The notes: generated by a model from the letters alone, not told the origin. A DNA stretch of 64,000 nucleotides from Sandaracinaceae bacterium (GCA_020633075.1 JACKEI010000004.1:97092-161091), one strand, 5' to 3'; shown: positions 7,847-33,554, numbered from the stretch's first letter. Made by a program: numbers and translations.

Positions 7847-7850
<4 letters not shown>
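6813..7850 (+). CDS. aguA: agmatine deiminase
   Basis: MPPEWAPHDACWLAFPH..W, CWVRDTG, HTDGHIDTLARF and C-terminal GGGGLHCASQQQP (catalytic Cys) match the PAD_porph/agmatine deiminase family. Confidence 0.9.
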
Positions 7851-8710
<860 letters not shown>

Positions 8711-8846
8711 TCGCGCGCGCGCGTGCTTCCGTGCGCGGGCGGCACACTGAGTTGCCGATTCGATACGGTCCCGGCGGTCGAGCTGGCCGCACTGGCTACA
8801 AACGCGCGTGATCCGGTTGGCACGTGTCGTGCTGTACTTCAGGGGC

Positions 8847-19226: not shown

Positions 19227-21314
19227 TTGCCGCTCCCCGTGTCCACTCAGCGCGCCACCGTCGGTGATCTCGCGCGTACGCTCGAGCGTCGCGTCTACGT
19301 CGACCGGCCCGGCGCCCAGGAGCTGTTCGATCAGCTGCTGGCGTCGGCGGACGGTCGCCCCAGCGTGCTCTTCGTGACGGCTCCGGGAGGCTCGGGCAAG
19401 AGCGTGTGTCTGCGGCTCTTCGAGGCGCAGGCCGAGCAGCGCGGGGTGCGCACCTGTTTTCTGGACGCGCGTGACGTGCCGGCCGACGCGCGGGCGGCCG
19501 AGCTGGCGATCCTCCAGGCCGTGAGCGTGGTCGCCGGGGCCGCGCGAGGCGTGGTCTTCGTGGACACCTTCGAGGCGCATCAGGCCTTGGAGCGCGTCTA
19601 CCGCGAGCGCATCCTGCTGAAGACGCCGCACCACGTGCGCGTCGTGCTCGCTGGGCGGCAGTCGCCCGACGGGGCCTGGGCCACGGACCCGGTGTGGTCG
19701 CAGCTGATGCGCACCTACCGGCTGCCGCTCTTGAGCGACGACGAAGCGCGCGCCCTGCTGCGGGCCCGTGACGTGCCCCAGGCCGAGCAGGCGGAGCTGA
19801 TCCTGCTGGGGCGCGGACACGCGCTGACGCTGGCCTGTCTGGCGACCGAGGGCTTCGACCGCGGGCGCCCGTTTCGCGCCGGCAGCAACCAGCTGGCCGA
19901 GCTGGGCGCGCCCCTGCCCGAGGACGAGAAGCTCGCCATCCTCACGCTGTGCTTGGGCCACTGGGTCCACGAGGCCGACCTCGTGCGGGTGGCGGGCACC
20001 GCGTCGTTCCTGCCGCAGCTCGAGCGCCACGCCTTCGTGGAGCGCGCCGGCACGCGCTGGCGCATCCACGAGCTCTACCGCGACGGCTTCCTCGTGCGCT
20101 TGCGCACGGAACTCCGTGACGCGCTGCCCGGCGTGCTGCGGCGCGGCATCTGGAACGTCATGGCGCGCGTGCGCGAGGAGACCGACTTCGACAAGCGCGT
20201 GCAGCTGCAGTTCGAGGTGGGGTTCTTGCTGCGGGCGGTGCCTCCGGGGGACGGCATCTACGACCTGTTCCACGCAGACCCCTATTACCGCGACGGGCTC
20301 CGCGCCGAGGACGTGCCGCTCATCGTGGCGGCGCTCGAGCGCTTCGAGGGAGCCACCAGCGCGGCGCTCGCCGAGGAGCACCTGCGGCGCTTCCCGGACC
20401 TGTGCCTGGTGCTGCGGGACGCGTTCGGGGCGCCCATCGCCGTGGTCATCTGGATGGAGGCGGCGCGGCTCAGCGAAGAAGACGTGCGCCGGGACCCCGC
20501 CGCCGCTCGGCTGCAGGCCGTCTCCGGTGCCGGGGCGTCCCACCTGGTGCGCTGGTGGTTCACGCTTCACGACTACCAGGCGCCCTCGGCCGCCTTCTCG
20601 CACATCACGGCCTACGCGTCGTCCACGGGCTTCGCGCGGCTGGGGCCTTCGGTGCACGGGCACGTCATCCACACGCTCACGCCCGCCTCGGGCGCGGCCT
20701 GGTACGAGCTGGGGCTCTTGGACCGCATCCCCGAGCTGGAGTTCGAGCTCGAGGGTCACGCGTACACGGTGCTGGGCTACGACTTCCGCGGCGAGACGCA
20801 GCACGAGCGCATGGTGCGCGACATCGAGCGCATGCTGGAGATCGCGGCCAACATGCATGGTGCGCACGCGGCTGCGCCCAGGACGGGGGCGGGCCCGTCG
20901 TCGTCCCCGCCCGAGCCCGCCCTCCAGCGCGTCTGCGCGGTGGCGCCCCGGCCAGCGGGTCTCGACCAGCTTGGGGAGGCCGTGTCCGAGGCCCTGCGCT
21001 GGTACCGCTACGACGACCGCCTGAGCCGCGCTCGGCTGGCGGCGGGCATGCAGACCGAGTCGCCGCTGGACCGTGCCGCGCGGGTGCGGGCCCTGCTCGA
21101 CCAGGCCCACGCGCGCATGCGGCCCACCGGGCGCACCCCCGAGCCGGCCACGCTGATCGCCCGCTCGTACTTCGAGCGCGAGGACAAGCAGCTGGCCATC
21201 GCGCACGACCTCGGCCTCGCCCACGGGACCTACCGCCGGCGCCTGCGCGAGGCCGTGCAGCAGCTGACCGCGTGCGTGGAGAGCGTCTGGGCCGAGGACG
21301 GGGGCACGCTGTGA
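19227..21314 (+). CDS. STAND-type (NB-ARC/AAA_16-like) NTPase with C-terminal sigma70-r4/LuxR-like HTH
   Basis: Walker A VTAPGGSGKS, Walker B VVFVDTFE, RLPLLSDDEARALL and GRGHALTLACLA (GxP-like motif). About 400 aa of unassigned middle region. The C-terminal ..KQLAIAHDLGLAHGTYRRRLREAVQQL.. looks like an HTH. Start is TTG 19227 or GTG 19239. Confidence 0.72.
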   Translation: MPLPVSTQRATVGDLARTLERRVYVDRPGAQELFDQLLASADGRPSVLFVTAPGGSGKSVCLRLFEAQAEQRGVRTCFLDARDVPADARAAELAILQAVSVVAGAARGVVFVDTFEAHQALERVYRERILLKTPHHVRVVLAGRQSPDGAWATDPVWSQLMRTYRLPLLSDDEARALLRARDVPQAEQAELILLGRGHALTLACLATEGFDRGRPFRAGSNQLAELGAPLPEDEKLAILTLCLGHWVHEADLVRVAGTASFLPQLERHAFVERAGTRWRIHELYRDGFLVRLRTELRDALPGVLRRGIWNVMARVREETDFDKRVQLQFEVGFLLRAVPPGDGIYDLFHADPYYRDGLRAEDVPLIVAALERFEGATSAALAEEHLRRFPDLCLVLRDAFGAPIAVVIWMEAARLSEEDVRRDPAAARLQAVSGAGASHLVRWWFTLHDYQAPSAAFSHITAYASSTGFARLGPSVHGHVIHTLTPASGAAWYELGLLDRIPELEFELEGHAYTVLGYDFRGETQHERMVRDIERMLEIAANMHGAHAAAPRTGAGPSSSPPEPALQRVCAVAPRPAGLDQLGEAVSEALRWYRYDDRLSRARLAAGMQTESPLDRAARVRALLDQAHARMRPTGRTPEPATLIARSYFEREDKQLAIAHDLGLAHGTYRRRLREAVQQLTACVESVWAEDGGTL

Positions 21315-21335: not shown

Positions 21336-21929
21336 GTGTCCAACGCGGCCGACGAACGCTGCAGCGCCTTCGCGCTGGGCTACACTCCATGCGTGCGACG
21401 TCCCGTTGATCCCCCTGCGGTCTTGCGCCTCCTCGAGGCGCTGGGCCGCCGTGCTCGCGGGCCTGGTGGGGTGTACCTCACGGGAGGTGCCACCGCGCTG
21501 CTGCTCGGCTGGCGCACGTCGACCAACGACGTGGACATCAAGCTGGACCCGGAGCCCGACGGGGTGTTCGAGGCCATCGCCTCGCTCAAGAACGAGCTGG
21601 ACGTCAACGTGGAGTTGGCCTCGCCAGACCTGTTCATCCCGGAGCTGCCCGGGTGGCGCGAGCGCTCGCGCTTCGTGGGCGAGTTCGGGAAGCTGCAGGT
21701 CTTCCACTACGACCTGCGGGCCCAGGCGCTGGCCAAGCTCGCGCGCGGCGTGGACCGAGACCTGCTGGACGTGCGCGCCATGCTCGACCTGGGCTTGGTG
21801 TCGCGACAGGACCTACGCGACGCCTTCGAGGCCATCCGTACGCGGCTCATTCGCTTCCCGCGCTTGGACGAGGCGAGCTTTGCGGCTGCGGTCGCACACG
21901 TGTGCGATCAGGAAGGGGGCACGCCGTGA
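21336..21929 (+). CDS. minimal nucleotidyltransferase-fold protein (AbiEii / DUF6036-like)
   Basis: GGVYLTGGATALLLGWRTSTNDVDIKLD fits the NTase hG[GS]-x(9-13)-DhD signature and resembles the AbiEii N-terminal motif. GTG start at 21336 (alternative GTG 21393). Confidence 0.68.
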   Translation: MSNAADERCSAFALGYTPCVRRPVDPPAVLRLLEALGRRARGPGGVYLTGGATALLLGWRTSTNDVDIKLDPEPDGVFEAIASLKNELDVNVELASPDLFIPELPGWRERSRFVGEFGKLQVFHYDLRAQALAKLARGVDRDLLDVRAMLDLGLVSRQDLRDAFEAIRTRLIRFPRLDEASFAAAVAHVCDQEGGTP

Positions 21930-21936: not shown

Positions 21937-22264
21937 GCTGGCCGAGCTCGAGCCCCTCACCGAACTCCCGGGAGCCGAGGTCGTGCTGCAGGGGCTGCGC
22001 GACGTCACCGCGCTTGCACCCACGCCCGAGGCGGCGCTGGTGCAGGCCGCGACGGAGCGCTTCGCGCAGCACGGGGTGCGCATCCCGCGCCTGCCCGAGG
22101 ACGCCGAGCTGGTGCTCTACCGCCGACTGGGCGAGCGCATGGGCCCGGGAGCCGACGTGTACGGCCGCTACAACGCCTGGTTGGATGACTTGGTGAGCTT
22201 CTTGTGCGCGCTGGACCGACGGCGGGCGCTGCGGGGCAAGCTCCCGTCCGACGCGCGCTCCTGA
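21926..22264 (+). CDS. hypothetical small protein (112 aa), GTGA-coupled to the NTase gene
   Basis: GTG at 21926 inside ORF 21653..22264. The sequence from VIASLAELEPL... has plausible helical composition. The upstream part of the track ORF overlaps the NTase gene out of frame and is R/G/A-rich shadow. Confidence 0.45.
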   Translation: MIASLAELEPLTELPGAEVVLQGLRDVTALAPTPEAALVQAATERFAQHGVRIPRLPEDAELVLYRRLGERMGPGADVYGRYNAWLDDLVSFLCALDRRRALRGKLPSDARS

Positions 22265-22342
22265 CGGCCTCCTGGTCCCACGCGCTCGCGCGGGGCTCGA
22301 CGTGCGCGTGCTGGGCGTCTAGCACCCCGGGCTGCTGGCGAC

Positions 22343-23221
22343 TCAGCGCAGGTTGGGGGGCACCACGGGCTCGATCCGGTGGCAGGTGGCCTCCGTGAGC
22401 GCGCCCGGCGCGCCCAGCTCGCCCACGGCGGTGATGGCCTTCTCGGCGGCGTCGCCCCACAGCACGCACACGTCCGCGGGCGTGGGCTCGGTCAGACGAA
22501 ACGCGCCGGGCACGCGCACGCGGTTGCCGCAGTCCACCGTGTCGTCCGCCGGCAGCGGCAGGCTCCACTCGCCGGCTTGGTAGACGGCCACGCGCTGCTG
22601 CCCCTCGAGCCCCGGGCGGCAGGTGAGCTGCACGGCGAAGCGGTCGCCCAGGAGGAAGCTGCTGGGGTCCTCCACCACGGCGCCGTCGCGCTCACGTAGC
22701 AGCGTCAGGCTGAGGTCGCTGCGGCTCGGGGTGGCGGCGTCGGTCGCGCCGATGCGCTCCGTGGGCAGGTCGCTGGGGACCACGCGCGTGATGCCACGCT
22801 CCGGGTCCTGCGGGGTGCCGGGCCGGAGGACGACGAGCGCCACGGCCGCCGCCGCCGCGAGCCCGAGCGTGGCGGGCAGCACCCAGCGCGCGCGGGACTG
22901 AAAGCGCGCGGGGCGCACCACCGTCGCGAGCACGGGCTCCGCAGGAGCGGCGTGCGGGGCACGGCGCGCGGGATCGTCCAGTGCAGGCTCGCGCAGCGCA
23001 GGCTCGCGCGGCGCAAGCTCGGCTGACCGTGAGTCTGCGCTCACGTCCAGCGTGGGCAGCGCCACGGGCGCAGCGCACTCCTCTGCGCACGCACGGCAGG
23101 CCGCGCACTCGCGCAGGTGCGCTTCCACGGTGCGCGCTTCATCACCCGTGAGCTCGCCCAGGGCCAGGCGCTCCAGGCGCAGCCAGGAGACCGGGGTGCC
23201 GGTGCAGACGAGCTCACGCAT
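22343..23221 (-). CDS. anti-sigma factor (zf-HC2 type) with one TM helix and a periplasmic domain
   Basis: N-terminal ..AHLRECAACRAC.. (H-x3-C-x2-C), TM WVLPATLGLAAAAAVALVVL, and an 8-nt overlap with the upstream ECF sigma gene. Confidence 0.8.
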   Translation of the reverse strand: MRELVCTGTPVSWLRLERLALGELTGDEARTVEAHLRECAACRACAEECAAPVALPTLDVSADSRSAELAPREPALREPALDDPARRAPHAAPAEPVLATVVRPARFQSRARWVLPATLGLAAAAAVALVVLRPGTPQDPERGITRVVPSDLPTERIGATDAATPSRSDLSLTLLRERDGAVVEDPSSFLLGDRFAVQLTCRPGLEGQQRVAVYQAGEWSLPLPADDTVDCGNRVRVPGAFRLTEPTPADVCVLWGDAAEKAITAVGELGAPGALTEATCHRIEPVVPPNLR

Positions 23222-23729
23222 GAGGCGGCTCCTCTGCGTCTTGCGCGGCGTCGCGGCGCGCGGCCTCGGCGGACATGGCGCCCAGGGCCACCAGCTCGCT
23301 GCGCAGCGTGGCCATGCGGCGCACCACCGTCTTGCGGCTCACGCCCATCACGCTCGCGATCTCGGTCTGGTCCAGGTCGTCCCAGTAGCGGTAGACCAGC
23401 ACCTCGAGCGTGCCCTCGTCCAGCCGGTCCATGAGCTTCAGCAGCAGGTCCTGCCCCAGCGCCTGCTCGTCGCAGCGGGTGCGCACCACGCCGCGCAGCG
23501 CGGGGGTCTCGCGCTCGAGCAGTCGGGTGTGAGTGTTGCGGTCGCGGATCATGGTCAAGCAGCGGTTGGTGAGGGCGCGGTAGAGATAGGGGAGCTCGAC
23601 GTCCAGCGCGGAGCGCGCGTAGAGGTCCGTGAACAGGCCTTGCACCACGTCGAGGGCATCGTCCCGGTTGCCCAGGAGGCGCGTGGCCTTGCGCAGCAGC
23701 GCGGGGCCGTAGCGGCGGTAGATGTCCAT
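23214..23729 (-). CDS. ECF-type RNA polymerase sigma factor
   Basis: ORF 23214..23984 trimmed to MDIYRRYGPALLRKA.. Region 2 (DALDVVQGLFTDLY) and region 4 (LVYRYWDDLDQTEIASVMGVSRKTVVRRM) are recognisable. Confidence 0.9.
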   Translation of the reverse strand: MDIYRRYGPALLRKATRLLGNRDDALDVVQGLFTDLYARSALDVELPYLYRALTNRCLTMIRDRNTHTRLLERETPALRGVVRTRCDEQALGQDLLLKLMDRLDEGTLEVLVYRYWDDLDQTEIASVMGVSRKTVVRRMATLRSELVALGAMSAEAARRDAAQDAEEPPHA

Positions 23730-23748
23730 CGTGAGGAGTGTGGTGCCA

Positions 23749-24609
23749 CTAAGGGGTGGTCCTGCAAGCGCGGTAGGCGCCGTTGGGGTGCGCGTCGTCC
23801 AGCAGCACCTGGCAGGTCTCGCCCGCGCCGCAGCTCGCGTCGTCGGCGCACTCGCTGCAGGCCTGCCAGCCCGCGATGGGCGCGCACACGCCGCTGCCGC
23901 ACTCTGCGGCGGCCTCGCAGGCCACGCCCAGCGGACGGTTCTCCACGGTGACCGGGTCCACGCAGCCGCTCGCCACGCGGACACCGAAGTGCGCGATGAC
24001 GGCGCGCCCCTCGCCGCGCTTGTGGATGCGGAAGCGCATGCGGCCAGGCCAGGTGGGCACGCTGGTGAGAAAGGACACGGGCTCCCAGTCGCTAGCGGCC
24101 ATGGGCTGCGTGTGGTCCACGGTGCCGTCCGCGCCGTAGTCCACCTCGATCTGCACCTGCGCGCCGGGCTCCACGTCGGCCGTCACGTCGAACTGCAAGC
24201 AGCCGCCCGTTCCGGAGCTCACCTGCCAGATGCAGTCGTTGGTGTCCGGGACATAGAGCCCATCCAGCGAGGCGCAGACGCTCTCTACGTCCTCCGGGGG
24301 TACCTCGAGCCCCTCGGCGTCCATTCGCTCGCTGGTGGGCTTGCCCGTGACCTGCGACAGGACCGTGGGGGTCTCCACCAGGTCCACGCCATAGTCACTG
24401 GGGTGCCAGGTGCCCACGCGGGCGATGCGTCCGGCTTCGAGGTCCCAGCTGCACAGGGTGTCCCCGCACCAGGCTTGGAACGACGGGTCTTCGACCTCTT
24501 CTTCGCAGCCCGAGAAGAGCAGGGTGACGAGGGCCAGGCCGGCGAGTGCGCGGCGGCGCGCAGGGAGCGACACGGGATGGAGCGAGATGGTGTGCAGAGT
24601 CTTGGTCAT
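23749..24609 (-). CDS. hypothetical Cys-rich lipoprotein
   Basis: MTKTLH..LALVTLLFSGCEEE lipobox. Lies 12 nt after the caspase gene and 19 nt before the sigma gene. Confidence 0.65.
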   Translation of the reverse strand: MTKTLHTISLHPVSLPARRRALAGLALVTLLFSGCEEEVEDPSFQAWCGDTLCSWDLEAGRIARVGTWHPSDYGVDLVETPTVLSQVTGKPTSERMDAEGLEVPPEDVESVCASLDGLYVPDTNDCIWQVSSGTGGCLQFDVTADVEPGAQVQIEVDYGADGTVDHTQPMAASDWEPVSFLTSVPTWPGRMRFRIHKRGEGRAVIAHFGVRVASGCVDPVTVENRPLGVACEAAAECGSGVCAPIAGWQACSECADDASCGAGETCQVLLDDAHPNGAYRACRTTP

Positions 24610-24621
24610 GAGCGCCTCGAT

Positions 24622-26355
24622 TCAGAACTGAGCCTGGAAGCCCGTGAGGATGGTCGGGCCGCCGCTGTCGTGGCGGTCGCCCAGGTTGTTGCGGAGGATG
24701 GGGGCGTAGCTGTAGCCCCCCTGTAGGTAGAACCCCGCGCGGCGGCCGGGCATGACGCGCAGGCCCAGCGCGGCCGACAGCGTGACCCCGTAGTCCGTGA
24801 GGACGTTGGTGGGCTCCTGCTCCCGGCCCGGGTTGAAGCGGGTGCGCGCGATGCCCAGCCCGAGGCCGCCTTGGGCGTAGCCGTACAGCCAGTGCCCCGC
24901 GAGCGGCACGGTGCCGCGCAGCTGCGCGCCCACGGACCAGGCTCGCCAGGAGTAGTCGTCGTCCGAGTCGTCGAAGAAGACCCGGTCGAACCGCTGCACC
25001 TCCAGCTGGTCGAAGGTGAGCAACACGCTGAAGTGCCGAGAGACCGTGCGCTCCACCGCGAGCGCCATGCGTGGCGTCCAGTCCGCCGAGAACAGCCCGC
25101 GCGTGAAGCCGAAGTCGTTCAGCCGTTGGGTGTAGTCGCTTGCGCGTCCTCGGCGGCCGAAGCCGAAGCCGAGCTCGAAGGCCCAGGTCCGGGTGGGACC
25201 CGTGCGCGCCTCGCGGGCGGTGGCTTGTTCGGCGGTGATCTCTTGGCAGCTGCTGGCGCTGAGGGTGTGCACGCCGCGCGCCGGAAGCGTGATGTCGCAG
25301 CTGCGGATGACGCGCTGGCCGCGCCACAGCACGTGGTAGCGCCCCGGCGGTAGGGCCAGCCGCAGCGCAGCGCCCGAGGCCTTGGTGAGCTCCGCCATGA
25401 CGGCGTCGCCGCGCGCGCGGGTGATGAGCAGCTGCCCCTCGAGCGCGGCGGGCAGCTCCAGCTGGGCCGAGGCGCGTGCCGGGTAGGTGAGCGCCACCGC
25501 GCCGTGGCCCGTGAGGTTGGTGACCAGCGTCACGTGCTGTCCGCCCACGGCCGTGCGCGAGGTGTCCAGCAGGGTCTGCGCGTAGGCGTAGCGGTAGGCC
25601 TCGTCCAGCGCGACGCGGCCGTCGCGGTCTTCGTCGGCGCCGCCGCGCAGGGCCACCAGCAGGTGGTGCGTGAAGTAGCCGGCCGACAGGCGCTCGGACT
25701 CTTGGCTGAGCTCGTCGCCGCTGCTGCTGGCCATCACGGCCACGCCGCGCGTCTGCAGCTGCGTGATGGAGTTGTGCGAGAAGTCCGCCGTGGCGTCGGC
25801 GCCGCGCACGCGGGAGTAGGCGCCGCTCTGGCACGCGTCCAGCACCACCAGCGTGAGCGTGGTGGGCAGCGCGTCGATGGCGGCGCGCAGCTCGCTCAGC
25901 GGGAACTCCTCGCCGCCCAGGCGCAGGGCTTGGGCTTGGGCGTGGCCCGAGTAGTAGAAGAACACCACGCTCTGCTCGTCGCGCGCGGCGTGCGTGGCCA
26001 GGCGCTGACGCAGGCGGCGCAGGGCGCCGGCCAGCTGGGCGCGCGTGGGGGAGCGCAGGAGGTCCACGCTTCCCGCCGGGTAGTGCCCCAGCTCCACCAG
26101 CACCTCGGCCATGCGCTGCGCGTCGCGCTCGGCGAAGGCCAGCGGCTCCTGACCGGGGCCGCCCGGGTTGCTGCCCACCACCAGCGCGTAGGCGTGCGCG
26201 TCCGGGGCGAGGTCCAGGCGCTGCGGGCGTGCGTCCGCCGGCGCGGGCTGGGCCTGGGCGGGGGCCGGGGTGGCGCCGGTGTGCAGCAGGAGCAGCAGGG
26301 CGAGCGGGGCTAGCCGGGCTAGCGAAGTCGCGATGGAGGTGTGCGTTCGAGGCAT
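24622..26355 (-). CDS. caspase-family (peptidase C14) domain protein fused to a C-terminal outer-membrane-type beta-barrel
   Basis: Signal peptide. C14 catalytic dyad contexts VVFFYYSGHA (His) and LVVLDACQSG (Cys). The C-terminal ~200 aa have alternating-hydrophobic strands and end ..TILTGFQAQF (terminal Phe, OMP-like). Confidence 0.82.
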   Translation of the reverse strand: MPRTHTSIATSLARLAPLALLLLLHTGATPAPAQAQPAPADARPQRLDLAPDAHAYALVVGSNPGGPGQEPLAFAERDAQRMAEVLVELGHYPAGSVDLLRSPTRAQLAGALRRLRQRLATHAARDEQSVVFFYYSGHAQAQALRLGGEEFPLSELRAAIDALPTTLTLVVLDACQSGAYSRVRGADATADFSHNSITQLQTRGVAVMASSSGDELSQESERLSAGYFTHHLLVALRGGADEDRDGRVALDEAYRYAYAQTLLDTSRTAVGGQHVTLVTNLTGHGAVALTYPARASAQLELPAALEGQLLITRARGDAVMAELTKASGAALRLALPPGRYHVLWRGQRVIRSCDITLPARGVHTLSASSCQEITAEQATAREARTGPTRTWAFELGFGFGRRGRASDYTQRLNDFGFTRGLFSADWTPRMALAVERTVSRHFSVLLTFDQLEVQRFDRVFFDDSDDDYSWRAWSVGAQLRGTVPLAGHWLYGYAQGGLGLGIARTRFNPGREQEPTNVLTDYGVTLSAALGLRVMPGRRAGFYLQGGYSYAPILRNNLGDRHDSGGPTILTGFQAQF

Positions 26356-26515
26356 CTTGTCTGTGCTAACTCGCGAAGGGTCTCGGGTGGGACAGGGGCG
26401 GGTGTTTTTTCTGCGGGCGCTTCGCGGCGGGGCGCAGGCGGCCGGTTGGGAGAGCGTGTGGCAAGTGTGGGCCGTGCACCGCTATGCTGCGGGCTCGATG
26501 CACCAGGAGGGCTTC

Positions 26516-27478
26516 ATGGATCGCAACCCGCACGGGCCCAGGCCTGACTTTCGCCGTGTCTCTCCGGATGTCTTGCCGCGCGGTGCGTGGCTGGCGTGCG
26601 CGCTGGCGCTCGTGGGCTGTGAGGGGCCGCGTCCGGCCTACCGCTTCCTCGGAGACACCGCGCTGCTGGCGGCCGACGAGCCCGGCGACCTGCGCTACGA
26701 GCGCACTGGGTCGCGCACCAGTCGCCACTTGCGCGTCGAGGTCGTTTCAGGCGACGTCGGCGCGCGTCTCGGCTTGCGGCGGCTCGATGACACCATTTGG
26801 CCGACGAACACGCCCGTGGTGGAGGTGGACGGCGCGCCCGCGGGTCACCAGGCCGTGCTCGAGCTGCTCGACGGTGCGCGTCCGCTCCAGCGCGTGCGCA
26901 TCGACTACGTGGAGGAGGGCACCCCCGGCCTACGCGGGGCGAGCTACGAGGACGTCCTGGGGTCGCTCGACCCGCTGGGCGCCGTGTGCCTGCTGGAGGA
27001 GCAGGAGTCCTTCGTCTTCGTCGCCCGTCGCGCCGTCGACGGCCGGCTGTTGGACGCGCCCTTTCCGTTTGGGACCGAGGTTCACGACGCTGTATTTGAC
27101 GCCGACTGGGCCCCGTCCAGCGGGCTCGGGGGTGTGGTGTACGCGCCGCTGAGGGCACCCGTGGCAGGCGTGTACGAGCTCGACGTGGTGGTGCGCGACA
27201 GCGACCGCAGCTGGGTGGCGGAGGTGCGCGTGGTGCGGGCCGACGAGCTGGTGACCTTGGATGTCCGCACGCCAACGGAAGACGGCATCTCGGCGGGATT
27301 GGTGGTCGCCGTGCCCCGGACCGCCGACGGCTGCGCGGTGCTGGGCGCTCCCGTCACCATCGACGTGGCAGGGGTGCGCACCTCGTGGACCTACGGGGCG
27401 GGCTACTTCAGCGTCGCCGAGCCGGGGGCCACCCTGCGTGTGGAGCTGGGCGACCTGGTGGCGACGGCCGTCTATTGA
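26516..27478 (+). CDS. hypothetical lipoprotein
   Basis: ORF 26270..27478 trimmed to MDRNPHG..GAWLACALALVGCEGP (lipobox). Alternative ATG at 26498. Confidence 0.6.
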   Translation: MDRNPHGPRPDFRRVSPDVLPRGAWLACALALVGCEGPRPAYRFLGDTALLAADEPGDLRYERTGSRTSRHLRVEVVSGDVGARLGLRRLDDTIWPTNTPVVEVDGAPAGHQAVLELLDGARPLQRVRIDYVEEGTPGLRGASYEDVLGSLDPLGAVCLLEEQESFVFVARRAVDGRLLDAPFPFGTEVHDAVFDADWAPSSGLGGVVYAPLRAPVAGVYELDVVVRDSDRSWVAEVRVVRADELVTLDVRTPTEDGISAGLVVAVPRTADGCAVLGAPVTIDVAGVRTSWTYGAGYFSVAEPGATLRVELGDLVATAVY

Positions 27479-27723: not shown

Positions 27724-28893
27724 TCAGCTGACGCCGCTCAGCAGCGCCAGGGTGCGCGCCGCCTCCTTTCGCACGCGCGGGCGGGCGTCGGTGGCAAAGC
27801 GGTGCACCAGCTCCACGTCGTGACGCGTGCCCACGTCCGACAGCGCGCCGAGAGCGCCCACGACGGCACGGGTGGAGGCCCGGCTGGGCGGAGGGGCGTG
27901 CACGCCTGCATGCGACCGGGTCAGCGCGGTGGCGCCGCTCAGCGTGCGCAGCGCCAGCGCCCGCGTGGCCTCGAAGCTGCGCGCCGGGTGGCGCGCCCGC
28001 AGCAGCTGGCGGGCGGTCAGGCGCACGGCGGCGTGGTGGTCCATCAGCCCGGCCTCCAGGGGGGCGTCGCTCGGGTCCAGCTTGCTTGTCCGCCGCAGCG
28101 CCAGGCTGCGCACCCACGCGGAGTGCGACTGGGAGAGGGTGGGCAACAGCGCCCGCTGGTCGCTCTCGCTGGTGGCTCCCGAGATGGCCGTGCGCGCGGC
28201 CCACGTGTGCACCCCGATGGCGGGGTCCCCCAGCGCGGCGCTCAACACCTCGAGCGGGCTCTCCCCGACCGGTTGCGCGAGGCGAAGCGCATAGGCCAGG
28301 CGGCGCACACGTGGGTCGGCGTCGTGGCTGGCGCGCAGGAGCGCGGGCCGCTGCGGGGGTTCCGCCAGAAAGCTCCGCACGCTGGGGACCACGCTGCCGC
28401 CCCCTCCCCGCTGCCGCTCGGCCAGCTGAGCCAGCAGGCCCAGCGAGCTGGCCAAAGCGTCCGCGTAGCGCGGGTGCAGGCTGCGCTGGACGGCGGCGGT
28501 GGCGCTCGCGCGTAGGGAGGCCACGATGTCGTCACAGCGCAGCAGCATGAAGGGCAGCACCCAGGGCTGACCGCTGTCCGTGAGGACGTGCAGCGCCACC
28601 TCACGCACGTACCCGTTGCGGTGCGTGCTCAGCAGCGCGGCCACCGCCAGGCGCTGCGGCGCGGGGAACGCGTCCAGCAGCGCAGGGTCCATGTGCCGGT
28701 GGGAACCGACGGATTGAGGAAAGACGATCTGCGCAAACGACACGCGCGCCTGGGCGGCGAGCTCGGCGATGTCCCGAGGCGAGGCCGACCGCAGCAGCCC
28801 GTCAATCGCCACGGCCGCCGCTTCGCGCGTGGGGTCGTCGCGCGAGGGCAGGTCGCGGGCGGCCAGCAGGACCTGACGGGAGAGGGAGAGCAC
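27724..28893 (-). CDS. HEAT-repeat protein
   Basis: Recurrent D.D..VR..A...L helical-repeat strings (HDADPRVRRLAYALRL, MDHHAAVRLTARQLL, TDARPRVRKEAARTLA, RNGYVREVALHVL). GTG start 18 nt after the Rpn gene stop. Confidence 0.6.
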   Translation of the reverse strand: MLSLSRQVLLAARDLPSRDDPTREAAAVAIDGLLRSASPRDIAELAAQARVSFAQIVFPQSVGSHRHMDPALLDAFPAPQRLAVAALLSTHRNGYVREVALHVLTDSGQPWVLPFMLLRCDDIVASLRASATAAVQRSLHPRYADALASSLGLLAQLAERQRGGGGSVVPSVRSFLAEPPQRPALLRASHDADPRVRRLAYALRLAQPVGESPLEVLSAALGDPAIGVHTWAARTAISGATSESDQRALLPTLSQSHSAWVRSLALRRTSKLDPSDAPLEAGLMDHHAAVRLTARQLLRARHPARSFEATRALALRTLSGATALTRSHAGVHAPPPSRASTRAVVGALGALSDVGTRHDVELVHRFATDARPRVRKEAARTLALLSGVS

Positions 28894-28911: not shown

Positions 28912-29892
28912 CTAGTGCGGCTCGAACACCTCGCCCAGGCTCGCGGCGCTCAACACGCGCCCAATCAGGCGCTGCAGCTGGTCCGCGTCGGCCGCGTCGA
29001 TGCGCGCGCTGGTCGTGCCGTCGAGGGCACCAAAGCGCTGGCCGAGCAGGCTGCGCAACGTGTCCCGAAGCGCGCGTGCCCGACCTTGCTCGGTACCTTG
29101 CCGCAAGCCCTCGAGGACACCTTCTTGCCTGAGTTGATCTGCGATGGATGCCAAGGGAGCCTCCGCGGCGGGGACGTTTTCGAGGATGGTGCGACGCAGC
29201 TCGTCGAAGGAGGGCGGACCCGTCCGCTGCAGAATGTAGCGCAGAAAGACGCGGGCATCATCGGGGGCGTGGAGCAAGACATGGTGGAGCTCGGCGCTCA
29301 AAGCCGGGAGGTGCGCCAACAGCGCGTCCGCCTTGCGTCCGTCGCGGAGCAACCAGATGGCCACACGCGGCACCGGAGTGAGTGGGCGCGCCAACAGCTG
29401 GCTGTCCGAGACGTGTGCCAAGTCGTCGATCAGCAGCTCGAGGTTGGGGACGAACGGTCGCAGCTGAGGGAACTCGTCGAGACCCTCGACCATCTCGTGG
29501 AGGCTGCGAGGTGCGGTCCATCCCCCGGGGCCGTGGTGCACGATCAGCGTCAGCACCGGTGGCAGCGTCTTCCGGCCACGCTCATTCCTCAAGAGCTTGG
29601 ACCACACGCGTTGGAGGTATTCCAGCACGCGGAGCGGCATGAGCGGATCGGGCCGGCTCTGATGCTCCATGAGGAGGTACAGGTAGACCAGTCTGCCCCC
29701 CAACGGCACGCGGAAGAGTAGGTCGGTGTGGCGGTGCGCCATGTCGGGGCCGACGAAGGTGCCCGGGATGTGTTCGAGGCGACTCAGGTCCAGCGCTGCG
29801 AGCAGCACGGCTGGCAGGACGCAGCGCAGCTCCGCCGCGGCGTTGGCAGGCACCGCGAAGATGCGCTTGAACAGGGTGTCGTAGTCACCCAT
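28912..29892 (-). CDS. Rpn-family recombination-promoting nuclease / putative transposase (PD-(D/E)XK, YhgA-like) with DUF4351-like C-terminus
   Basis: YDTLFKRIF.., TDLLFRVPLGGRLVYLYLLMEHQSRPDPLMPLRVLEY.. and C-terminal ..LGQRFGALDGTTSARIDAADADQLQRLIGRVLSAASLGEVF match the family pattern. GC visibly lower than neighbours. Confidence 0.8.
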   Translation of the reverse strand: MGDYDTLFKRIFAVPANAAAELRCVLPAVLLAALDLSRLEHIPGTFVGPDMAHRHTDLLFRVPLGGRLVYLYLLMEHQSRPDPLMPLRVLEYLQRVWSKLLRNERGRKTLPPVLTLIVHHGPGGWTAPRSLHEMVEGLDEFPQLRPFVPNLELLIDDLAHVSDSQLLARPLTPVPRVAIWLLRDGRKADALLAHLPALSAELHHVLLHAPDDARVFLRYILQRTGPPSFDELRRTILENVPAAEAPLASIADQLRQEGVLEGLRQGTEQGRARALRDTLRSLLGQRFGALDGTTSARIDAADADQLQRLIGRVLSAASLGEVFEPH

Positions 29893-30058: not shown

Positions 30059-31648
30059 TCACCCCAGGCTGGCGATCAAGCGCTCCGCTGCGCGCTCCGC
30101 CATGGCGGTGATGGTCAGGCTGGGGTTCACGCCCACGTTGGAGGACACCGCGGAGCCGTCCACCACGTAGAGGCCGGGGTAGCCAAAGACCTCGTGGTCG
30201 GCGCTGATGACGCCGTGCTGCGCGTCGCGGCCCATGTTGCAGCCGCCCAGGATGTGCGCCGTGGCGGCCATGTTGCCCAGTGACGCCAGCGCCGTGTCAA
30301 AGGCCTGCCCGCCGGTCTGGGTGGCGATCACCTGCGCGGTGCGTGAGGCCACGGGCAGGTGCGAGGGGGGCGCCTGGTGCCCCGGGGCTAGCTGCGAGCG
30401 GAGCGCGCCTCCGCCCGCGCGCAGGCGGCTCGCGCCGTAGCCAAACTGAAGCTCGCTGTCGCTGTGCTGCATGACGGTCAGCACCGTCACGTGCTCGTTC
30501 CAGCGCGGGTCGCGCAGCGGCTCGAGCGCGCGCCGTGGGTGGCGCAGGGCCTGCCAGGCCGTCTTGCCCAGCCGCCGCGCAAAGCCGGGACCCTCGGCCA
30601 GCGGCGTGGCCAGCGCCCGCATGAAGCGGTAGGCGGGGGGGAAGCGGTTCTGCGTGATGTGCGTGTGCGCGTCCGGGTAGAAGTGCGACGAGATGGCCGT
30701 GCCGTCCAAGAGGTCGTCCGGCGGGTCCTGGTGGTGCACCCCCACGATGGCCTCGCTGTTGGTGCGCACGCGCTTGCCCAGCTGCGCCGACAGCTGCGGC
30801 AGCGTGCGGTGCACGTCACGGCAGCGGAAGAGCAGCTCGAGCGTGCCCACCACGCCGGCCGCCACCACCACGCGCTGCGCCGTGATGGGCGCGTGCGGCT
30901 GCTCCGTGCGCGGGTCCACGCTGCTCACGCGGTAGCCGCCGGGCACGGGCTCGATCTTGCGCGCCGCGTGCCACGGCCACACCTCCGCCCCGTGCGCGCG
31001 CGCCAGGTGCAGGTAGTTCATGTCCAGCGAGTTCTTGGCCCCCGTGGGGCAGCCCGCGATGCAGCGCCCGCAGAAGCTGCAGCCCGTGCGCGCCGGCCCC
31101 GCGCCGCCAAAGTACGGGTCCGCGTGTGGCTGGTCCGGCGCGCCGAAGAAGATGCCGTTGGGGGTGGGCCCGTAGGTGTGCGCCGCGCCCGCCTCCTGCG
31201 CCGCGTGCTCCAGCCAGTGGTCCATGCTGGTCTTGCGGGGGTTCTGGGCCACGCCCAGCATGCGCTCCGCCGTGGCGTAGTGCGGCTCCAGCTCCGCGCG
31301 GAAGTCCACGCCCAGCCCGGCCCAGCCCTCGTGCGCAAACACCTCCGGCGGGGGCCGCAGCAACACGGCGCCGTACACCAGGCTGCCGCCGCCCACGCCC
31401 ACGCCGCCGACAATGCTCACGTGCCGGAACACGTGCTGCACGAAGAAGCCAAACATCTTGGCCTCGGGCAGCCACGCGAAGCGCCGGAGCGCGCTGTCCG
31501 CCGCCAGCATCTCGGCCCGCCCCACGGGGCCACCTTGCTCCAGCACGCGCACACGCAGCCCGGCCGCCGCCAGCCGCAGCGCCATCACGCTGCCGCCAAA
31601 GCCGCTGCCCAGGATGAGCACGTCGGTGTCGAGAGCGGGGTCGGTCAT
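30059..31648 (-). CDS. GMC-family FAD oxidoreductase (cholesterol-oxidase-like)
   Basis: ORF 30059..31882 trimmed to MTDPALDTDVLILGSGFGGSVMALRLAAAGLRVRVLEQG (GxGxxG). C-terminal HILGGCNMG..VVDGSAVSSNVGVNPSLTITAMAERAAE. Confidence 0.85.
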   Translation of the reverse strand: MTDPALDTDVLILGSGFGGSVMALRLAAAGLRVRVLEQGGPVGRAEMLAADSALRRFAWLPEAKMFGFFVQHVFRHVSIVGGVGVGGGSLVYGAVLLRPPPEVFAHEGWAGLGVDFRAELEPHYATAERMLGVAQNPRKTSMDHWLEHAAQEAGAAHTYGPTPNGIFFGAPDQPHADPYFGGAGPARTGCSFCGRCIAGCPTGAKNSLDMNYLHLARAHGAEVWPWHAARKIEPVPGGYRVSSVDPRTEQPHAPITAQRVVVAAGVVGTLELLFRCRDVHRTLPQLSAQLGKRVRTNSEAIVGVHHQDPPDDLLDGTAISSHFYPDAHTHITQNRFPPAYRFMRALATPLAEGPGFARRLGKTAWQALRHPRRALEPLRDPRWNEHVTVLTVMQHSDSELQFGYGASRLRAGGGALRSQLAPGHQAPPSHLPVASRTAQVIATQTGGQAFDTALASLGNMAATAHILGGCNMGRDAQHGVISADHEVFGYPGLYVVDGSAVSSNVGVNPSLTITAMAERAAERLIASLG

Positions 31649-31703
31649 AGGGTCTCGTGCGCGGACGTCATCGCGGCAGTGTGCAGCGGGTCGGGCCCGC
31701 GAT

Positions 31704-32573
31704 CTACCTGAGCTCCAGCTGGACGTCCGGCGCGGCTGAGAGTGCAGGCGCGGCGTGCGGCGCGTCTTCGTCGCTGCGGAGGCGCACCAGGGGCCACAGC
31801 AGCTCCACCTGCCACGGCTGCGGGGCCAGGTTCTCGATGCCGTAGCTCGGCGGGTAGCGGCGCGTGATGCGCGCGGTGCCAAAGAGCACGTCCCAGAAGA
31901 ACAGCAGGTTGCCGTAGTTGCCGGCGTAGTGGGTCACGCCGTCGTGCGTGTGCCGGCCGTGGTGCATGTGGTGCGTGGACGGCGTGGAGATGACGCGCTC
32001 CATCACCCACATGAGCGGCCGCAGCACACGCACGCGGTACAACTGCTCGTCCCAGCGGGAGCTGGAGTGGGCGCCCGCGATGACGCTGAGCTTCACCAGC
32101 AGGTACACCGGGTAGACCGCGCCCAGCCCCAGGTGCACCAGCACGCCGCTGACCCACAGGCTGGGCATCAGCGAGTAGTAGAACAGGTTGTTGCGGTACA
32201 TCATCTGCACGCTCATGTAGCGCGCGGAGTGGTGGGCGCGGTGCAGCGTGTAGAGCAGCGGCACGCTGTGGGACGCGCGGTGCCACCAGTACTGCAGCAG
32301 GTCGTCTCCCACCAGGAAGAGCAGGACCATGCTCCAGACGGGCAGGTCCGCCCACGCGCCGGCGCTGCCCGGAGAGATCACGCTGGCGAGCCCGGCGGCG
32401 CAGAGCACGATGGCCGGGCTGGCCGCTGCGAGGGTGCCCGTGGCGAGCAGGTCGAGGCGCCAGTCCGAGGGCGTGATCTCACGCGTGGCCAGGTGGCCGC
32501 GCAGCCACTCGACGGTGAAGAAGCAGAGGGAGACAGCGAGGATGGCGAGCTTGTGTTCCACGCCTCTCAGCAT
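31704..32573 (-). CDS. fatty-acid hydroxylase / sterol desaturase superfamily membrane protein
   Basis: ORF 31704..33536 trimmed to MLRGVEHK.. Histidine boxes HRASH, HRAHH, HHMHH and 4 TM helices. Stop lies 55 nt upstream of the GMC gene start. Confidence 0.85.
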   Translation of the reverse strand: MLRGVEHKLAILAVSLCFFTVEWLRGHLATREITPSDWRLDLLATGTLAAASPAIVLCAAGLASVISPGSAGAWADLPVWSMVLLFLVGDDLLQYWWHRASHSVPLLYTLHRAHHSARYMSVQMMYRNNLFYYSLMPSLWVSGVLVHLGLGAVYPVYLLVKLSVIAGAHSSSRWDEQLYRVRVLRPLMWVMERVISTPSTHHMHHGRHTHDGVTHYAGNYGNLLFFWDVLFGTARITRRYPPSYGIENLAPQPWQVELLWPLVRLRSDEDAPHAAPALSAAPDVQLELR

Positions 32574-32618
32574 GAGCACGCCGTTACATGAGTGATAGTG
32601 GTATGTTTTCACATAAAC
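32574..32618. promoter_or_regulatory. 45-bp AT-rich divergent promoter/operator region between the LysR gene and the desaturase gene
   Basis: TTACATGAGTGATAGTGGTATGTTTTCACATAA with an imperfect dyad TTACATG...CACATAA. Typical position for a LysR operator. No specific box verified. Confidence 0.3.
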
Positions 32619-33554
32619 ATGAGCAACAGGAATAAGAGAGCGCTGCGGCCCGTGGAGGCGCAGTACGAGCTGCGGCACCTGCGGCACCTCGTCGCGGTCC
32701 ACGAGCACGGCACGCTCGCGGGTGCGGCCGAGCACCTGGCCATCAGCCAGTCGGCGCTGACCAAGTCCATCCAGCGCCTGGAGTCCGCGCTGGGGGCGGA
32801 GCTCTTCGACCGGAGCGGCCGGCGCCTGCTGCTCAACACGCTGGGGCACCTGGTGCTGGCGCGCGCCGAGACGCTGCTGCGCGTGGCCGACGACGTGCAG
32901 CGTGAGGCGCACATGCACGCGGCCGGCGAGGCCGGGGAGGTGCTGCTGGGCGTGGGGCCGGTGGTGGCGCTGAGCCGGCTCCCGGCTGCCCTGGGGCGCT
33001 TCTGCGCGCGCTCTCCGGGGGTCACCGTGCGCGTGGAGAGCGGCTCCACCGAGAGCCTGGTGCCGCGCCTGCTGACCGGGGCGCTGCACTTCGTGGTCGC
33101 AGACTACGGCCACCGCGACGCGCACCCGGAGGTGCAGGTCACGCCCCTCGAGGCAGACCCCATCGGCGTGGGCGCGGCCACCACGCACCCGCTTCAGCGC
33201 GCAAAGCGGCCGCTGACCCTCGAGCAAGCGCTCCGCTACCCCGTCTGCGCGGCCACCGCGCCGCCGCGCATTCGGGAGTGGCTGCGCACGCGGGAAGACG
33301 GCGCGCGTCTCGAAGCGACGCTCACCTGCGACAACTACGAGGTGCTGGTCAGCGTGGTGGAGCAGACCGACACGGTGGTGCTCGGGCCGCTGTCCATGTT
33401 GCGCCGCTACGCCGCAGCCGGGCGCTTGGCCGTGCTGCCCGTCACGTACCCGAGCCCGCCGAGCGAGCCCGCCGTGCTGTCCGTGCGGGGTCGCCCGCTG
33501 GGGCTGGCCGCTCAGGGGCTCATGCGCGAGCTCCAAGCGCCGCGGGCGGGGTAG
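32619..33554 (+). CDS. LysR-family transcriptional regulator
   Basis: ORF 32592..33554 trimmed to MSNRNK.. The HTH LRHLVAVHEHGTLAGAAEHLAISQSALTKSIQRLESALGAELFDR is canonical LysR. Confidence 0.9.
   Translation: MSNRNKRALRPVEAQYELRHLRHLVAVHEHGTLAGAAEHLAISQSALTKSIQRLESALGAELFDRSGRRLLLNTLGHLVLARAETLLRVADDVQREAHMHAAGEAGEVLLGVGPVVALSRLPAALGRFCARSPGVTVRVESGSTESLVPRLLTGALHFVVADYGHRDAHPEVQVTPLEADPIGVGAATTHPLQRAKRPLTLEQALRYPVCAATAPPRIREWLRTREDGARLEATLTCDNYEVLVSVVEQTDTVVLGPLSMLRRYAAAGRLAVLPVTYPSPPSEPAVLSVRGRPLGLAAQGLMRELQAPRAG

Follow-up and report, generated by a model that had tools for sequence, protein, structure and literature searches.

A metacaspase-like protein predicted to be tethered to the outer membrane is encoded with an ECF sigma factor and its anti-sigma factor in Myxococcota: a candidate site-1 protease

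In this study, we analyzed a 64,000-nucleotide stretch of DNA from a Sandaracinaceae bacterium (GCA_020633075.1 JACKEI010000004.1:97092-161091; hereafter the window, with a G+C content of ~72%) and found that the gene at 24622..26355 is the first of four genes on one strand, which encode in order a caspase-barrel protein, a secreted cysteine-rich protein (gene 2), a sigma factor of the extracytoplasmic function (ECF) type and a zf-HC2 anti-sigma factor. The first product is very probably a Sec-exported, metacaspase-like cysteine protease followed by a β-sandwich and an eight-stranded OmpA-type barrel, with the protease domain hanging into the periplasm. We tentatively propose that this outer-membrane-tethered protease is dedicated to the site-1 cleavage of the anti-sigma factor, which would make the four genes a self-contained trans-envelope signaling module. 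The conserved four-gene ECF module around a predicted outer-membrane-anchored periplasmic caspase is a larger finding than the domain fusion; it would belong to ECF sigma/anti-sigma signaling by regulated proteolysis, and suggests an undescribed route, a relay from envelope to transcription by way of an outer-membrane caspase.

Bacterial caspase homologues are abundant and, to our knowledge, a substrate or role has been established for almost none of them. Signal transduction in bacteria has its third major mode in the ECF sigma/anti-sigma pairs, most groups of which still lack a known signal and a known activating protease. The locus joins these two questions in a compact unit that is conserved across many myxobacterial genomes. 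The features of the first gene and its product, with the evidence for each, are given below.

24622..26355, minus strand: gene 1, caspase-sandwich-barrel protein of 577 amino acids with an ATG start (open reading frame, Pfam, alignment, model)
26248..26355, minus strand: Sec-type signal peptide, residues 1-~36 (MPRTHTSIATSLARLAPLALLLLLHTGATPAPAQA/Q; read from the sequence)
25561..26196, minus strand: Peptidase C14 (caspase-fold) domain, residues ~54-265 (Pfam PF00656, invariant columns, Foldseek)
26122-26124, minus strand: invariant acidic residue D78 (alignment)
25942-25944, minus strand: predicted catalytic H138 in FFYYSGHA (invariant in the alignment)
25837-25839, minus strand: invariant acidic residue D173 (alignment)
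25831-25833, minus strand: predicted catalytic C175 in VLDACQSG (invariant in the alignment)
25750..25821, minus strand: disordered loop after the catalytic Cys, residues 179-202 (predicted local distance difference test, pLDDT, <50), with a conserved V-[K/R]184-G185-A
25801-25806, minus strand: candidate autoprocessing site R184-G185 (conserved basic-Gly pair with a putative processing role)
25237..25497, minus strand: β-sandwich middle domain, residues 287-373 (DSSP of the model)
25204-25233, minus strand: short helix of 10 residues, 375-384 (model)
24625..25185, minus strand: predicted eight-stranded outer-membrane β-barrel, residues 391-577, ending in F577 (model, Foldseek, hydropathy)

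The gene 1 product is identical to MCB9629505.1, a "caspase family protein" in the public record of a Sandaracinaceae metagenome-assembled genome. A preliminary description of the stretch had placed here a secreted protein of 577 residues carrying a C14 domain with an intact His-Cys dyad; its coordinates were exact, on the minus strand, and the signal peptide is readable in the sequence, with a basic n-region, a Leu-rich h-region and an AxA-like c-region. An N-terminal hydrophobic segment was present in all homologs in a 52-sequence alignment (42-80% identity to the query), in which H138, C175, D78 and D173 are all invariant, and the loss of dyad residues that had been feared on closer alignment did not occur. 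Peptidase_C14 (PF00656) matched residues 56-241 well above its Pfam cut-off (E=4.5e-15; 56.4 bits vs 21.4), and the Cys motif of the caspase was found in 119/119 full-length database homologs and in 77 of 78 representatives. An AlphaFold2 model built from the same alignment had a mean pLDDT of 85.1 and a predicted template modeling score (pTM) of 0.69, with pLDDT >90 over most of the caspase domain. When this model was compared with the PDB by Foldseek, its N-terminal part matched the caspase-Ig3 unit of MALT1 (4i1p_C) and Sf-caspase-1 (2nn3_C) with a probability of 1.0, and the MALT1 match covered both the caspase and the domain that follows it. The caspase fold of the C14 domain is supported by these results, and its peptidase activity is predicted.

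A sequence search of the PDB with the single gene 1 protein gave no match. With the family profile, the best PDB relatives were the metacaspases MCA1 (7qp0), AtMC4 (6w8s) and AtMC9 (8a53), in weak matches (E=0.004-0.07) that reach only as far as the catalytic His. The family resembles the metacaspases (C14B; AtMC4, AtMC9, yeast MCA1) in its A-L-x-x-G-x-N...D, SGH and D-x-C-x-S-G motifs, and also in the basic residue of the loop after the Cys, a candidate maturation site, whereas known metacaspases are cytosolic or soluble and none is fused to an outer-membrane barrel. In the weak profile alignment, the invariant D78 is aligned with the Asp of the metacaspase C-x-N-D motif, and D173 stands two residues before the catalytic Cys, as in D-x-C-x-S-G. 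In metacaspases, the two equivalent Asp residues line the S1 pocket and confer Arg/Lys specificity; if D78 and D173 are such S1-pocket residues, specificity for Arg/Lys at P1 is predicted. The loop after the Cys itself has a basic-Gly pair, with G185 invariant and Lys nearly invariant at position 184 in the 52 sequences, and [KR]G, in the form x-[KR]-G-A, was located 4-8 residues past the Cys motif in 119/119 homologs.

Downstream of the protease domain, the strands assigned by DSSP over residues 287-373 agree with the β-rich middle domain of the preliminary description. This sandwich of the window protein matched no Pfam family, and its two invariant cysteines, C353 and C370, probably form a disulfide, a pair that fits an oxidizing compartment. 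The C-terminal part had been read as a barrel, with a soluble β-sandwich as the alternative, and the model returned the barrel, with eight strands (391-401, 426-437, 442-459, 465-486, 490-508, 517-534, 540-555 and 561-576) all at pLDDT >90. Solved eight-stranded outer-membrane barrels dominated the Foldseek matches in the PDB: the top match was the transmembrane domain of OmpA (9fzd_A; E=1.4e-9; TM-score 0.75 normalized to the target), and the barrels of Ail, OmpX, NspA and OmpW also matched, like OmpA with a probability of 1.00. Hydrophobic and polar residues alternate in all eight strands in the family-averaged hydropathy. Of the two profile matches looked for on the basis of the preliminary description, Peptidase_C14 was obtained and OMP_b-brl (PF13505) was not, the window protein staying below the threshold over residues 435-553 (19.0 bits vs 28.7); many homologs of the gene 1 product carry a precomputed PF13505 match.

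The turns on the terminus side of the modeled barrel are short, at 3-5 residues (438-441, 487-489 and 535-539), and the sole long loop (402-425) lies on the opposite side. Both termini of OmpA-type barrels are periplasmic, and the even number of strands, the short terminus-side turns and the OmpA-type topology together place the caspase and the sandwich in the periplasm. The barrel is thus predicted to be amphipathic, eight-stranded and of OmpA type, and its closure and topology are likewise predictions of the model. With the Foldseek matches and the invariant dyad, this predicted topology supports the earlier suggestion of a periplasm-facing caspase-like protease tethered to the outer membrane. 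The terminal aromatic residue (GFQAQF) on which that suggestion had drawn is present in the window protein, which ends in F577, but is not a trait of the family, as only 27/52 aligned members end in F, W or L and the remaining ones end in short extensions such as ...RLGDDR and ...WSTP. The most conserved barrel segment is a near-invariant N..GDxHDSGG motif (residues 556-566), located where the last predicted extracellular loop passes into strand 8 (residues 556-577; 24625-24690, minus strand). We know of no counterpart of this motif, and from its conservation the barrel may do more than anchor the protein; it might, for instance, offer a site of contact, plug the lumen or bind an ion.

The three-part architecture is shared widely. 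More than 1,000 relatives of the gene 1 product were found in a search of 5.8 billion proteins, and those listed are almost all of 543-620 residues and aligned over ~90-100% of the query, which indicates that the architecture is a family property and not an accident of assembly. With residues 285-577 as the query, an exhaustive HMMER search of 1.84 billion representatives gave 318 clusters at E<=1e-3, nearly all of which are ~530-600-residue proteins with the sandwich and barrel module at the C-terminus. About 20 of the 318 clusters are proteins of 217-250 residues, made of a signal peptide and the barrel alone, which share the W..E.G.G...L.DFGY start and the GDxHxSGG end motif of the family; four metagenomic examples of 217-231 residues (P0187, P0199, P0215 and P0249) have 30-37% identity to the barrel of the caspase. 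These stand-alone homologs show that the barrel is an autonomous exported module.

The remaining features of the operon are as follows.

26365..26394, minus strand: ECF-type promoter-like element, ending 9 nt before the caspase ATG (family motif)
23749..24609, minus strand: gene 2, secreted Cys-rich protein of 286 amino acids, MCB9629504.1 "hypothetical protein", 12 nt after the caspase stop
24505-24519, minus strand: lipobox-like LFSG/C35 of gene 2 (sequence)
23971-24480, minus strand: predicted CBM-like β-jelly-roll of gene 2, residues ~44-213 (AlphaFold2 and Foldseek)
23752-23964, minus strand: Cys-rich tail of gene 2, residues 216-286 (sequence)
23214..23729, minus strand: gene 3, ECF sigma factor of 171 amino acids, MCB9629503.1 (Sigma70_r2, Sigma70_r4_2)
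22343..23221, minus strand: gene 4, class-I transmembrane anti-sigma factor of 292 amino acids, MCB9629502.1 (PF13490, 28 bits vs 22.2)
23096-23119, minus strand: zf-HC2 motif H35-x3-C39-x2-C42 of the anti-sigma factor (conserved in the alignment)
22820-22882, minus strand: transmembrane helix of the anti-sigma factor, residues ~114-134 (a transmembrane helix in 86/87 relatives)
22793-22798, minus strand: juxtamembrane R142-G143 of the anti-sigma factor ([KR]G past the helix in 85/86 relatives)

The four genes are tightly packed, with gaps of 12 nt between genes 1 and 2 and 19 nt between gene 2 and the sigma factor gene, and an overlap of 8 nt between the sigma and anti-sigma factor genes; no sigma-70-type promoter was found in 22000-26700, and no intrinsic terminator inside the operon. 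The same gene order was found near homologs at 77%, 46%, 44% and 43% identity, and the cassette persists where caspase identity falls to 39-44%. When species-representative genomes were scanned, 285 matching stretches were obtained, and the best 80 of these are almost all labeled as Myxococcota (Sandaracinaceae, Polyangiaceae, Labilithrix, Kofleriaceae and Haliangium), including the closed genome of Labilithrix luteola DSM 27648. Partners were sought by tblastn at the 76 loci whose flank downstream of the caspase reached 2.3 kb or more: the sigma factor was found in 76/76, gene 2 in 75/76 and the anti-sigma factor in 75/76 (it was not detected in locus L051), with strand and order relative to the caspase unchanged throughout. 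The four-gene unit is conserved across Polyangia-type Myxococcota. The locus without a detected gene 2 homolog, L020 (4504-7329, from an Archangium sp. metagenome-assembled genome), is a three-gene variant in which the sigma factor directly follows the caspase (+35 nt), and it is the sole adequately flanked locus of this kind. No paralogous cassette was found within the window.

A promoter element was also conserved with the cassette. The window copy has a -35 block TGTCCCA (26394-26388), a 17-nt spacer and a -10 block GTTAGC (26370-26365); the family consensus is GGGTTCCCA-N(~11)-CTCGCGTGTTAAC, with TCCCA and GTTA exactly 17 nt apart, or, written as two blocks, GGTTCCCA-N17-GTTAAC. The distance from the element to the start codon of the caspase downstream is 8-40 nt across the family. 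TTCCCA was found in 52/80 upstream regions vs 0 controls by k-mer enrichment, and the strict pattern YCCCA-N17-GTY stood upstream of the caspase at 59 of the 82 unique loci vs 0.011 expected per 400 nt. With a position weight matrix (PWM), the motif was recovered upstream of the caspase at 68/87 loci, while the rest of the 2.02 Mb scanned, both strands included, had only 3 copies, and neither the strict pattern nor the PWM found a further copy of comparable score in the window. The -10 block ends so close to the ATG (9 nt) that the transcript is expected to have no leader or almost none. Two blocks, a 17-nt spacer and a CGT-containing -10 region are typical of ECF promoters, and ECF sigma factors typically autoregulate; we infer that this promoter is read by the operon's own sigma factor.

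Two further copies of the promoter motif were seen at other loci. In L065, a second strong copy (7288-7322, plus strand; PWM 29.3) is located 15 nt past the anti-sigma stop and 26 nt upstream of an open reading frame (7348-8946) for a lipoprotein-like protein of 532 residues, vWA-like by eye, which is a possible regulon member in this single case. In L037, a copy on the opposite strand (~5839, minus strand; PWM 26.5) stands 66 nt upstream of where the caspase begins, which suggests that this genome has a divergent promoter dependent on the sigma factor.

The partner proteins have the features of a sigma/anti-sigma pair with an exported accessory protein. The sigma factor contains regions 2 and 4 only, matches TIGR02937 (sigma70-ECF; 51.3 bits vs a cut-off of 42.9), and its start for a product of 171 residues agrees with the public record. 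The anti-sigma factor has, past its transmembrane helix, a variable linker and then a conserved periplasmic β domain of ~130 residues (~160-292), for which no Pfam family was found in the window protein or in 31 relatives. The 87 anti-sigma relatives are 194-307 residues long and carry no C14 or CHAT annotation. DUF4384, considered as the periplasmic domain of the anti-sigma factor or the middle domain of the caspase, was rejected, with no such Pfam match in the window proteins or the 31 anti-sigma relatives, and so was homology among the caspase middle, anti-sigma periplasmic and gene 2 domains (hhalign probability <1% for all pairs).

Every gene 2 homolog carries a signal peptide with an invariant Cys no more than a few residues behind it, and their conserved domain of ~170 residues (DPxFxxWCGDxLCxW...VPTWH..DYGVEL) belongs to no Pfam family. 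The AlphaFold2 model of gene 2 matched the carbohydrate-binding module (CBM) CBM61 (2xom_A; E=2.2e-5) in Foldseek and also CBM6, CBM4, CBM16 and CBM35, with a probability of 1.0 and a TM-score of ~0.6 on the target, and a CBM-like fold of ligand-binding type is therefore predicted. The Cys-rich tail is a rapidly varying module with 4-50 Cys among the homologs (e.g., L011, L013 and L022); the tails of 3/31 homologs match the eukaryotic Dickkopf_N model (best E=8.7e-7), whose subject is a cysteine-rich region, and Myxo_Cys_RPT matches the window copy weakly.

The same dipeptide as in the caspase loop recurs in the linker of the anti-sigma factor, where x-[K/R]-G-x is present in 85/86 relatives. 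K-type caspases occur with KG anti-sigma factors at 64/66 loci, and R-type caspases with anti-sigma factors that have RG only, and no KG, at 4/4 loci; in the window the site reads E-R142-G143-I. Two more R-type contigs (L087 and L088) have I-R-G-G-D-V where K-type systems have I-K-G-G-D-V. This correspondence between caspase loop and anti-sigma linker, seen at the level of sequence, is suggestive and no proof.

Considering the above results, we tentatively propose the following model as the best explanation of this operon. At rest, the sigma factor would be held by the anti-sigma factor at the inner membrane, and the outer-membrane-tethered protease would be a zymogen. A cue, which may be a glycan or a component of the envelope that the CBM-like gene 2 protein binds while acting as an RseB-like protein or co-sensor, would activate the protease through autoprocessing at the conserved basic-Gly pair, R184/G185 here. 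The protease would then make the site-1 cut in the flexible periplasmic linker of the anti-sigma factor, at R142/G143 here and at x-K-G-G in most relatives, and a general RseP-type site-2 protease together with cytoplasmic proteases would complete the removal of the anti-sigma factor. The freed sigma factor would transcribe its own operon from the GTTCCCA-N17-GTTAAC promoter, in positive feedback, along with a further regulon. The domain architecture, the operon with its conservation, the promoter motif and the matched motifs are observed or strongly predicted, whereas in this model we infer the localization, activity, specificity and substrate of the protease, what gene 2 does, and that the promoter depends on the sigma factor. 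The model predicts definite cuts, one in the anti-sigma factor after R142 (after the Lys of x-K-G-G in most relatives) and one by autoprocessing after R184, and the cassette is present in a cultured organism with a closed genome, L. luteola DSM 27648, with related operons apparently in Myxococcus xanthus.

The main alternative, somewhat less probable in our view, is that the caspase-barrel protein and the gene 2 protein are the principal regulon members of the sigma factor, and the sigma/anti-sigma pair senses some other envelope signal by way of a general site-1 protease; the caspase would then be an inducible, outer-membrane-anchored periplasmic protease that processes or degrades further envelope proteins for remodeling, quality control, developmental lysis or defense. 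Both genes lie downstream of the conserved ECF-type promoter, hence their induction with the sigma factor is expected. The conserved genomic context of an ECF sigma factor often marks its target genes. Such context has been used for both the regulators and the targets of ECF sigma factors (PMC7826278).

Several of our own observations weigh against the caspase as site-1 protease and are in part what this alternative would expect. Genes co-transcribed with an ECF sigma factor may equally be its targets, and neither a fusion protein among the 87 anti-sigma relatives nor hhalign (<1%) links the caspase to the anti-sigma factor. The K/R match amounts to one event, and one locus departs from it: in a neighbor-joining tree of 124 caspases the 14 R-type sequences all fall into one clade (Fitch count 1), so that L015, L087 and L088 were rejected as independent K-to-R co-variation events, and at L034 a K-type caspase stands beside an anti-sigma factor with Y-R-G-G. 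By this tree, the K/R switch is one ancient event, retained in both partners across three deep subclades. In the window clade the R-G lies ~9 residues past the transmembrane helix, differing from the K-type position. The argument from an acidic S1 pocket depends on a weak alignment (E=0.004-0.07) and on the structures of metacaspases. For gene 2, a canonical lipobox is present in only ~30/80 homologs, the window copy included, and the AlphaFold2 model is moderate (pLDDT 69.6, from a shallow 12-sequence alignment).

In contrast, the near-absolute linkage of the genes, together with the rarity of the sandwich and barrel outside this architecture among the 318 clusters, is explained more naturally by a dedicated partner than by a regulon member. 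The same basic-Gly dipeptide is kept in two otherwise variable flexible segments, and DdvA, discussed below, is a precedent for a caspase-fold domain acting on an anti-sigma factor.

Improbable, in our judgment, is a non-catalytic outer-membrane partner whose periplasmic domain shields the anti-sigma factor until contact is lost and some other protease cuts. Its topology, an outer-membrane barrel with an N-terminal periplasmic domain, would be analogous to that of the transducers of cell-surface signaling (CSS), and TonB-dependent transducers are reported to protect their cognate anti-sigma factor from proteolysis (PMC11637429). However, the dyad, both acidic residues and DxCQSG are invariant down to ~40% identity, which indicates selection for catalysis, and the Pfam scans recognized no TonB box, plug or FecR-type domain.

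Many proteases are secreted by myxobacteria, which are predators, and the caspase might be a surface-exposed passenger, displayed or released like that of an autotransporter against prey or matrix with the CBM-like protein for targeting. This is more improbable still, although the order of signal peptide, passenger, short helix (375-384) and C-terminal barrel is suited to it. The eight strands match OmpA, OmpX and Ail and not the 12-stranded barrels of autotransporters, and the lumen of an eight-stranded barrel is too small for a linker; no Autotransporter Pfam match was obtained, the helix has just 10 residues, and the tight coupling to a transmembrane anti-sigma factor with a periplasmic domain would be left unexplained. 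The invariant catalytic residues and the eight-stranded barrel therefore make both the scaffold-only and the surface-display explanations less likely. Finally, the metagenomic origin of the sequence could suggest mis-joined or frame-shifted caspase and barrel genes, an artifact that is refuted by more than 100 listed homologs of 543-620 residues from independent assemblies and the closed genome of L. luteola DSM 27648.

The closest precedent for the caspase as site-1 protease is DdvA of M. xanthus, in which a periplasmic TPR-CHAT caspase-fold region (TPR, tetratricopeptide repeat) has been proposed for site-1 autoproteolysis before RseP (PMC11506125). The DdvS/DdvA system comes from the same phylum, and in both systems an ECF sigma factor is held by a zinc-binding, single-pass anti-sigma factor and a periplasmic caspase-fold His-Cys module is proposed to make the site-1 cut in a flexible juxtamembrane linker. 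The difference is that in DdvA the CHAT domain and TPRs are fused to the anti-sigma factor, whereas here the enzyme is a separate, C14/metacaspase-like, outer-membrane-anchored protein with a CBM-like partner, and the anti-sigma factor, at 292 residues with a small β domain, is no fusion of the DdvA type. Moreover, the DdvS regulon is a CBASS/CRISPR island, while PADLOC found no defense genes linked to the window cassette.

The association of metacaspases with sigma factors is already known since a 2012 survey, in which four of the five metacaspases of M. xanthus DK1622 were noted to share their operons with sigma factor genes (Asplund-Samuelsson et al., 2012; PMC3501461), and such operons were also reported in some Haliangium, Sorangium, Anaeromyxobacter, Ralstonia and Fibrobacter (PMC3501461). 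One of them, MXAN_6681-6684, contains an ECF sigma factor, the one-transmembrane protein MXAN_6682, the metacaspase MXAN_6683 of 577 residues, only the N-terminal half of which was annotated, and a lipoprotein (PMC3501461). These are the same four component types, and the M. xanthus operons are probably the same kind of module, although in the survey the order is sigma factor, transmembrane protein, caspase and lipoprotein, whereas here the caspase comes first. No barrel, promoter or mechanism was reported there. A literature search with subscription journals excluded found no paper combining M. xanthus, metacaspase and ECF; the MXAN locus tags appeared in no relevant study, and no functional work on the M. 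xanthus counterparts was found. The ECF re-classification paper mentions neither caspase nor C14. The literature so searched describes neither the barrel and the CBM-like partner nor the promoter, the paired basic-Gly sites or any mechanism.

Among the trans-envelope systems of other bacteria, two are similar in outline. The E. coli sigmaE system comprises the rpoE-rseA-rseB-rseC operon with DegS and RseP; it is autoregulated, and a periplasmic accessory protein gates the site-1 cleavage. It shares with the present operon an ECF sigma factor, a single-pass anti-sigma factor and a periplasmic accessory protein, and its signal comes from the outer membrane. However, DegS is an inner-membrane-anchored serine protease encoded elsewhere, whereas the candidate here is a cysteine protease of the caspase fold, predicted to be outer-membrane-anchored and encoded in the operon, and the predicted gene 2 fold is CBM-like, unlike RseB. 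FecA/FecR/FecI is a similar three-compartment relay, with an outer-membrane barrel carrying an N-terminal periplasmic domain, an inner-membrane anti-sigma factor and an ECF sigma factor. In contrast, the CSS transducer is a 22-stranded, TonB-dependent barrel with no catalytic role, and the barrel here is eight-stranded; Pfam scans of the window proteins and the anti-sigma relatives gave no TonB_dep_Rec, STN or FecR match. OmpA itself differs in having a C-terminal peptidoglycan-binding domain, where the present protein has a large N-terminal periplasmic enzyme. It is possible, if doubtful, that the operon represents a third trans-envelope ECF architecture, in which an outer-membrane-anchored metacaspase serves as operon-encoded site-1 protease, cuts its cognate anti-sigma factor at a basic-Gly site and is gated by a glycan-binding, CBM-like (lipo)protein.

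Caspase-fold proteases are also genomically coupled to ECF sigma factors, with activation proposed to occur through proteolysis, in systems of EACC2-caspase, ECF sigma factor and DUF1822 (Kaur et al., 2021; PMC8195603) and in ECF54 contexts with CHAT or subtilase domains and no transmembrane anti-sigma factor (PMC8999054). These differ in that EACC2 or variable sensor domains are present and no barrel is mentioned, and none of those domains was found in the window proteins. The suggestion in the preliminary description of a role in programmed cell death or defense gained no support, and assignment to a defense system was rejected: PADLOC gave a generic caspase-domain match only and none for the three partner proteins, and the NCBIfam model of the EACC1-associated caspase (NF047832) stayed below threshold (61.5 bits vs 140).

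If the proposed site-1 role is true, it would provide the first defined physiological substrate and signaling role for a bacterial metacaspase, extend the DdvA idea of caspase-fold proteolysis of anti-sigma factors to a separate enzyme tethered to the outer membrane, and offer synthetic biology a possibly useful, orthogonal switch of protease and sigma factor. If the caspase is instead an effector in the regulon of the sigma factor, it would still be unusual as a cysteine protease held at the outer membrane on its periplasmic side.

Upstream of the cassette, a divergent open reading frame (26270-27478, plus strand) with an internal lipobox-like ...ALVGC and no Pfam match, and a HEAT-repeat protein gene (27724-28893, minus strand; HEAT_2 below threshold), are not conserved beside the cassette at other loci. 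They are followed, ~2.5 kb upstream of the cassette, by a gene for a YhgA-like putative transposase/Rpn-family nuclease (28912-29892, minus strand; Transposase_31, E=6e-34), and farther on by a GMC-family FAD oxidoreductase (30059-31882, minus strand) and a LysR-type regulator (32592-33554, plus strand), metabolic neighbors apparently unrelated to the cassette. Just downstream of the cassette are a STAND-type NTPase of ~695 residues (19227-21314, plus strand; nSTAND_NTPase5 below threshold, 30 bits vs 34) and a DUF6036 nucleotidyltransferase-like protein (21336-21929, plus strand). The 77%-identical Sandaracinaceae locus L001 (12487-17120) has the same neighbors, nSTAND_NTPase5, HTH_31/MLTR_LBD and DUF6036, and the nSTAND_NTPase5 and DUF6036 genes may form a conflict or toxin-antitoxin-like unit.

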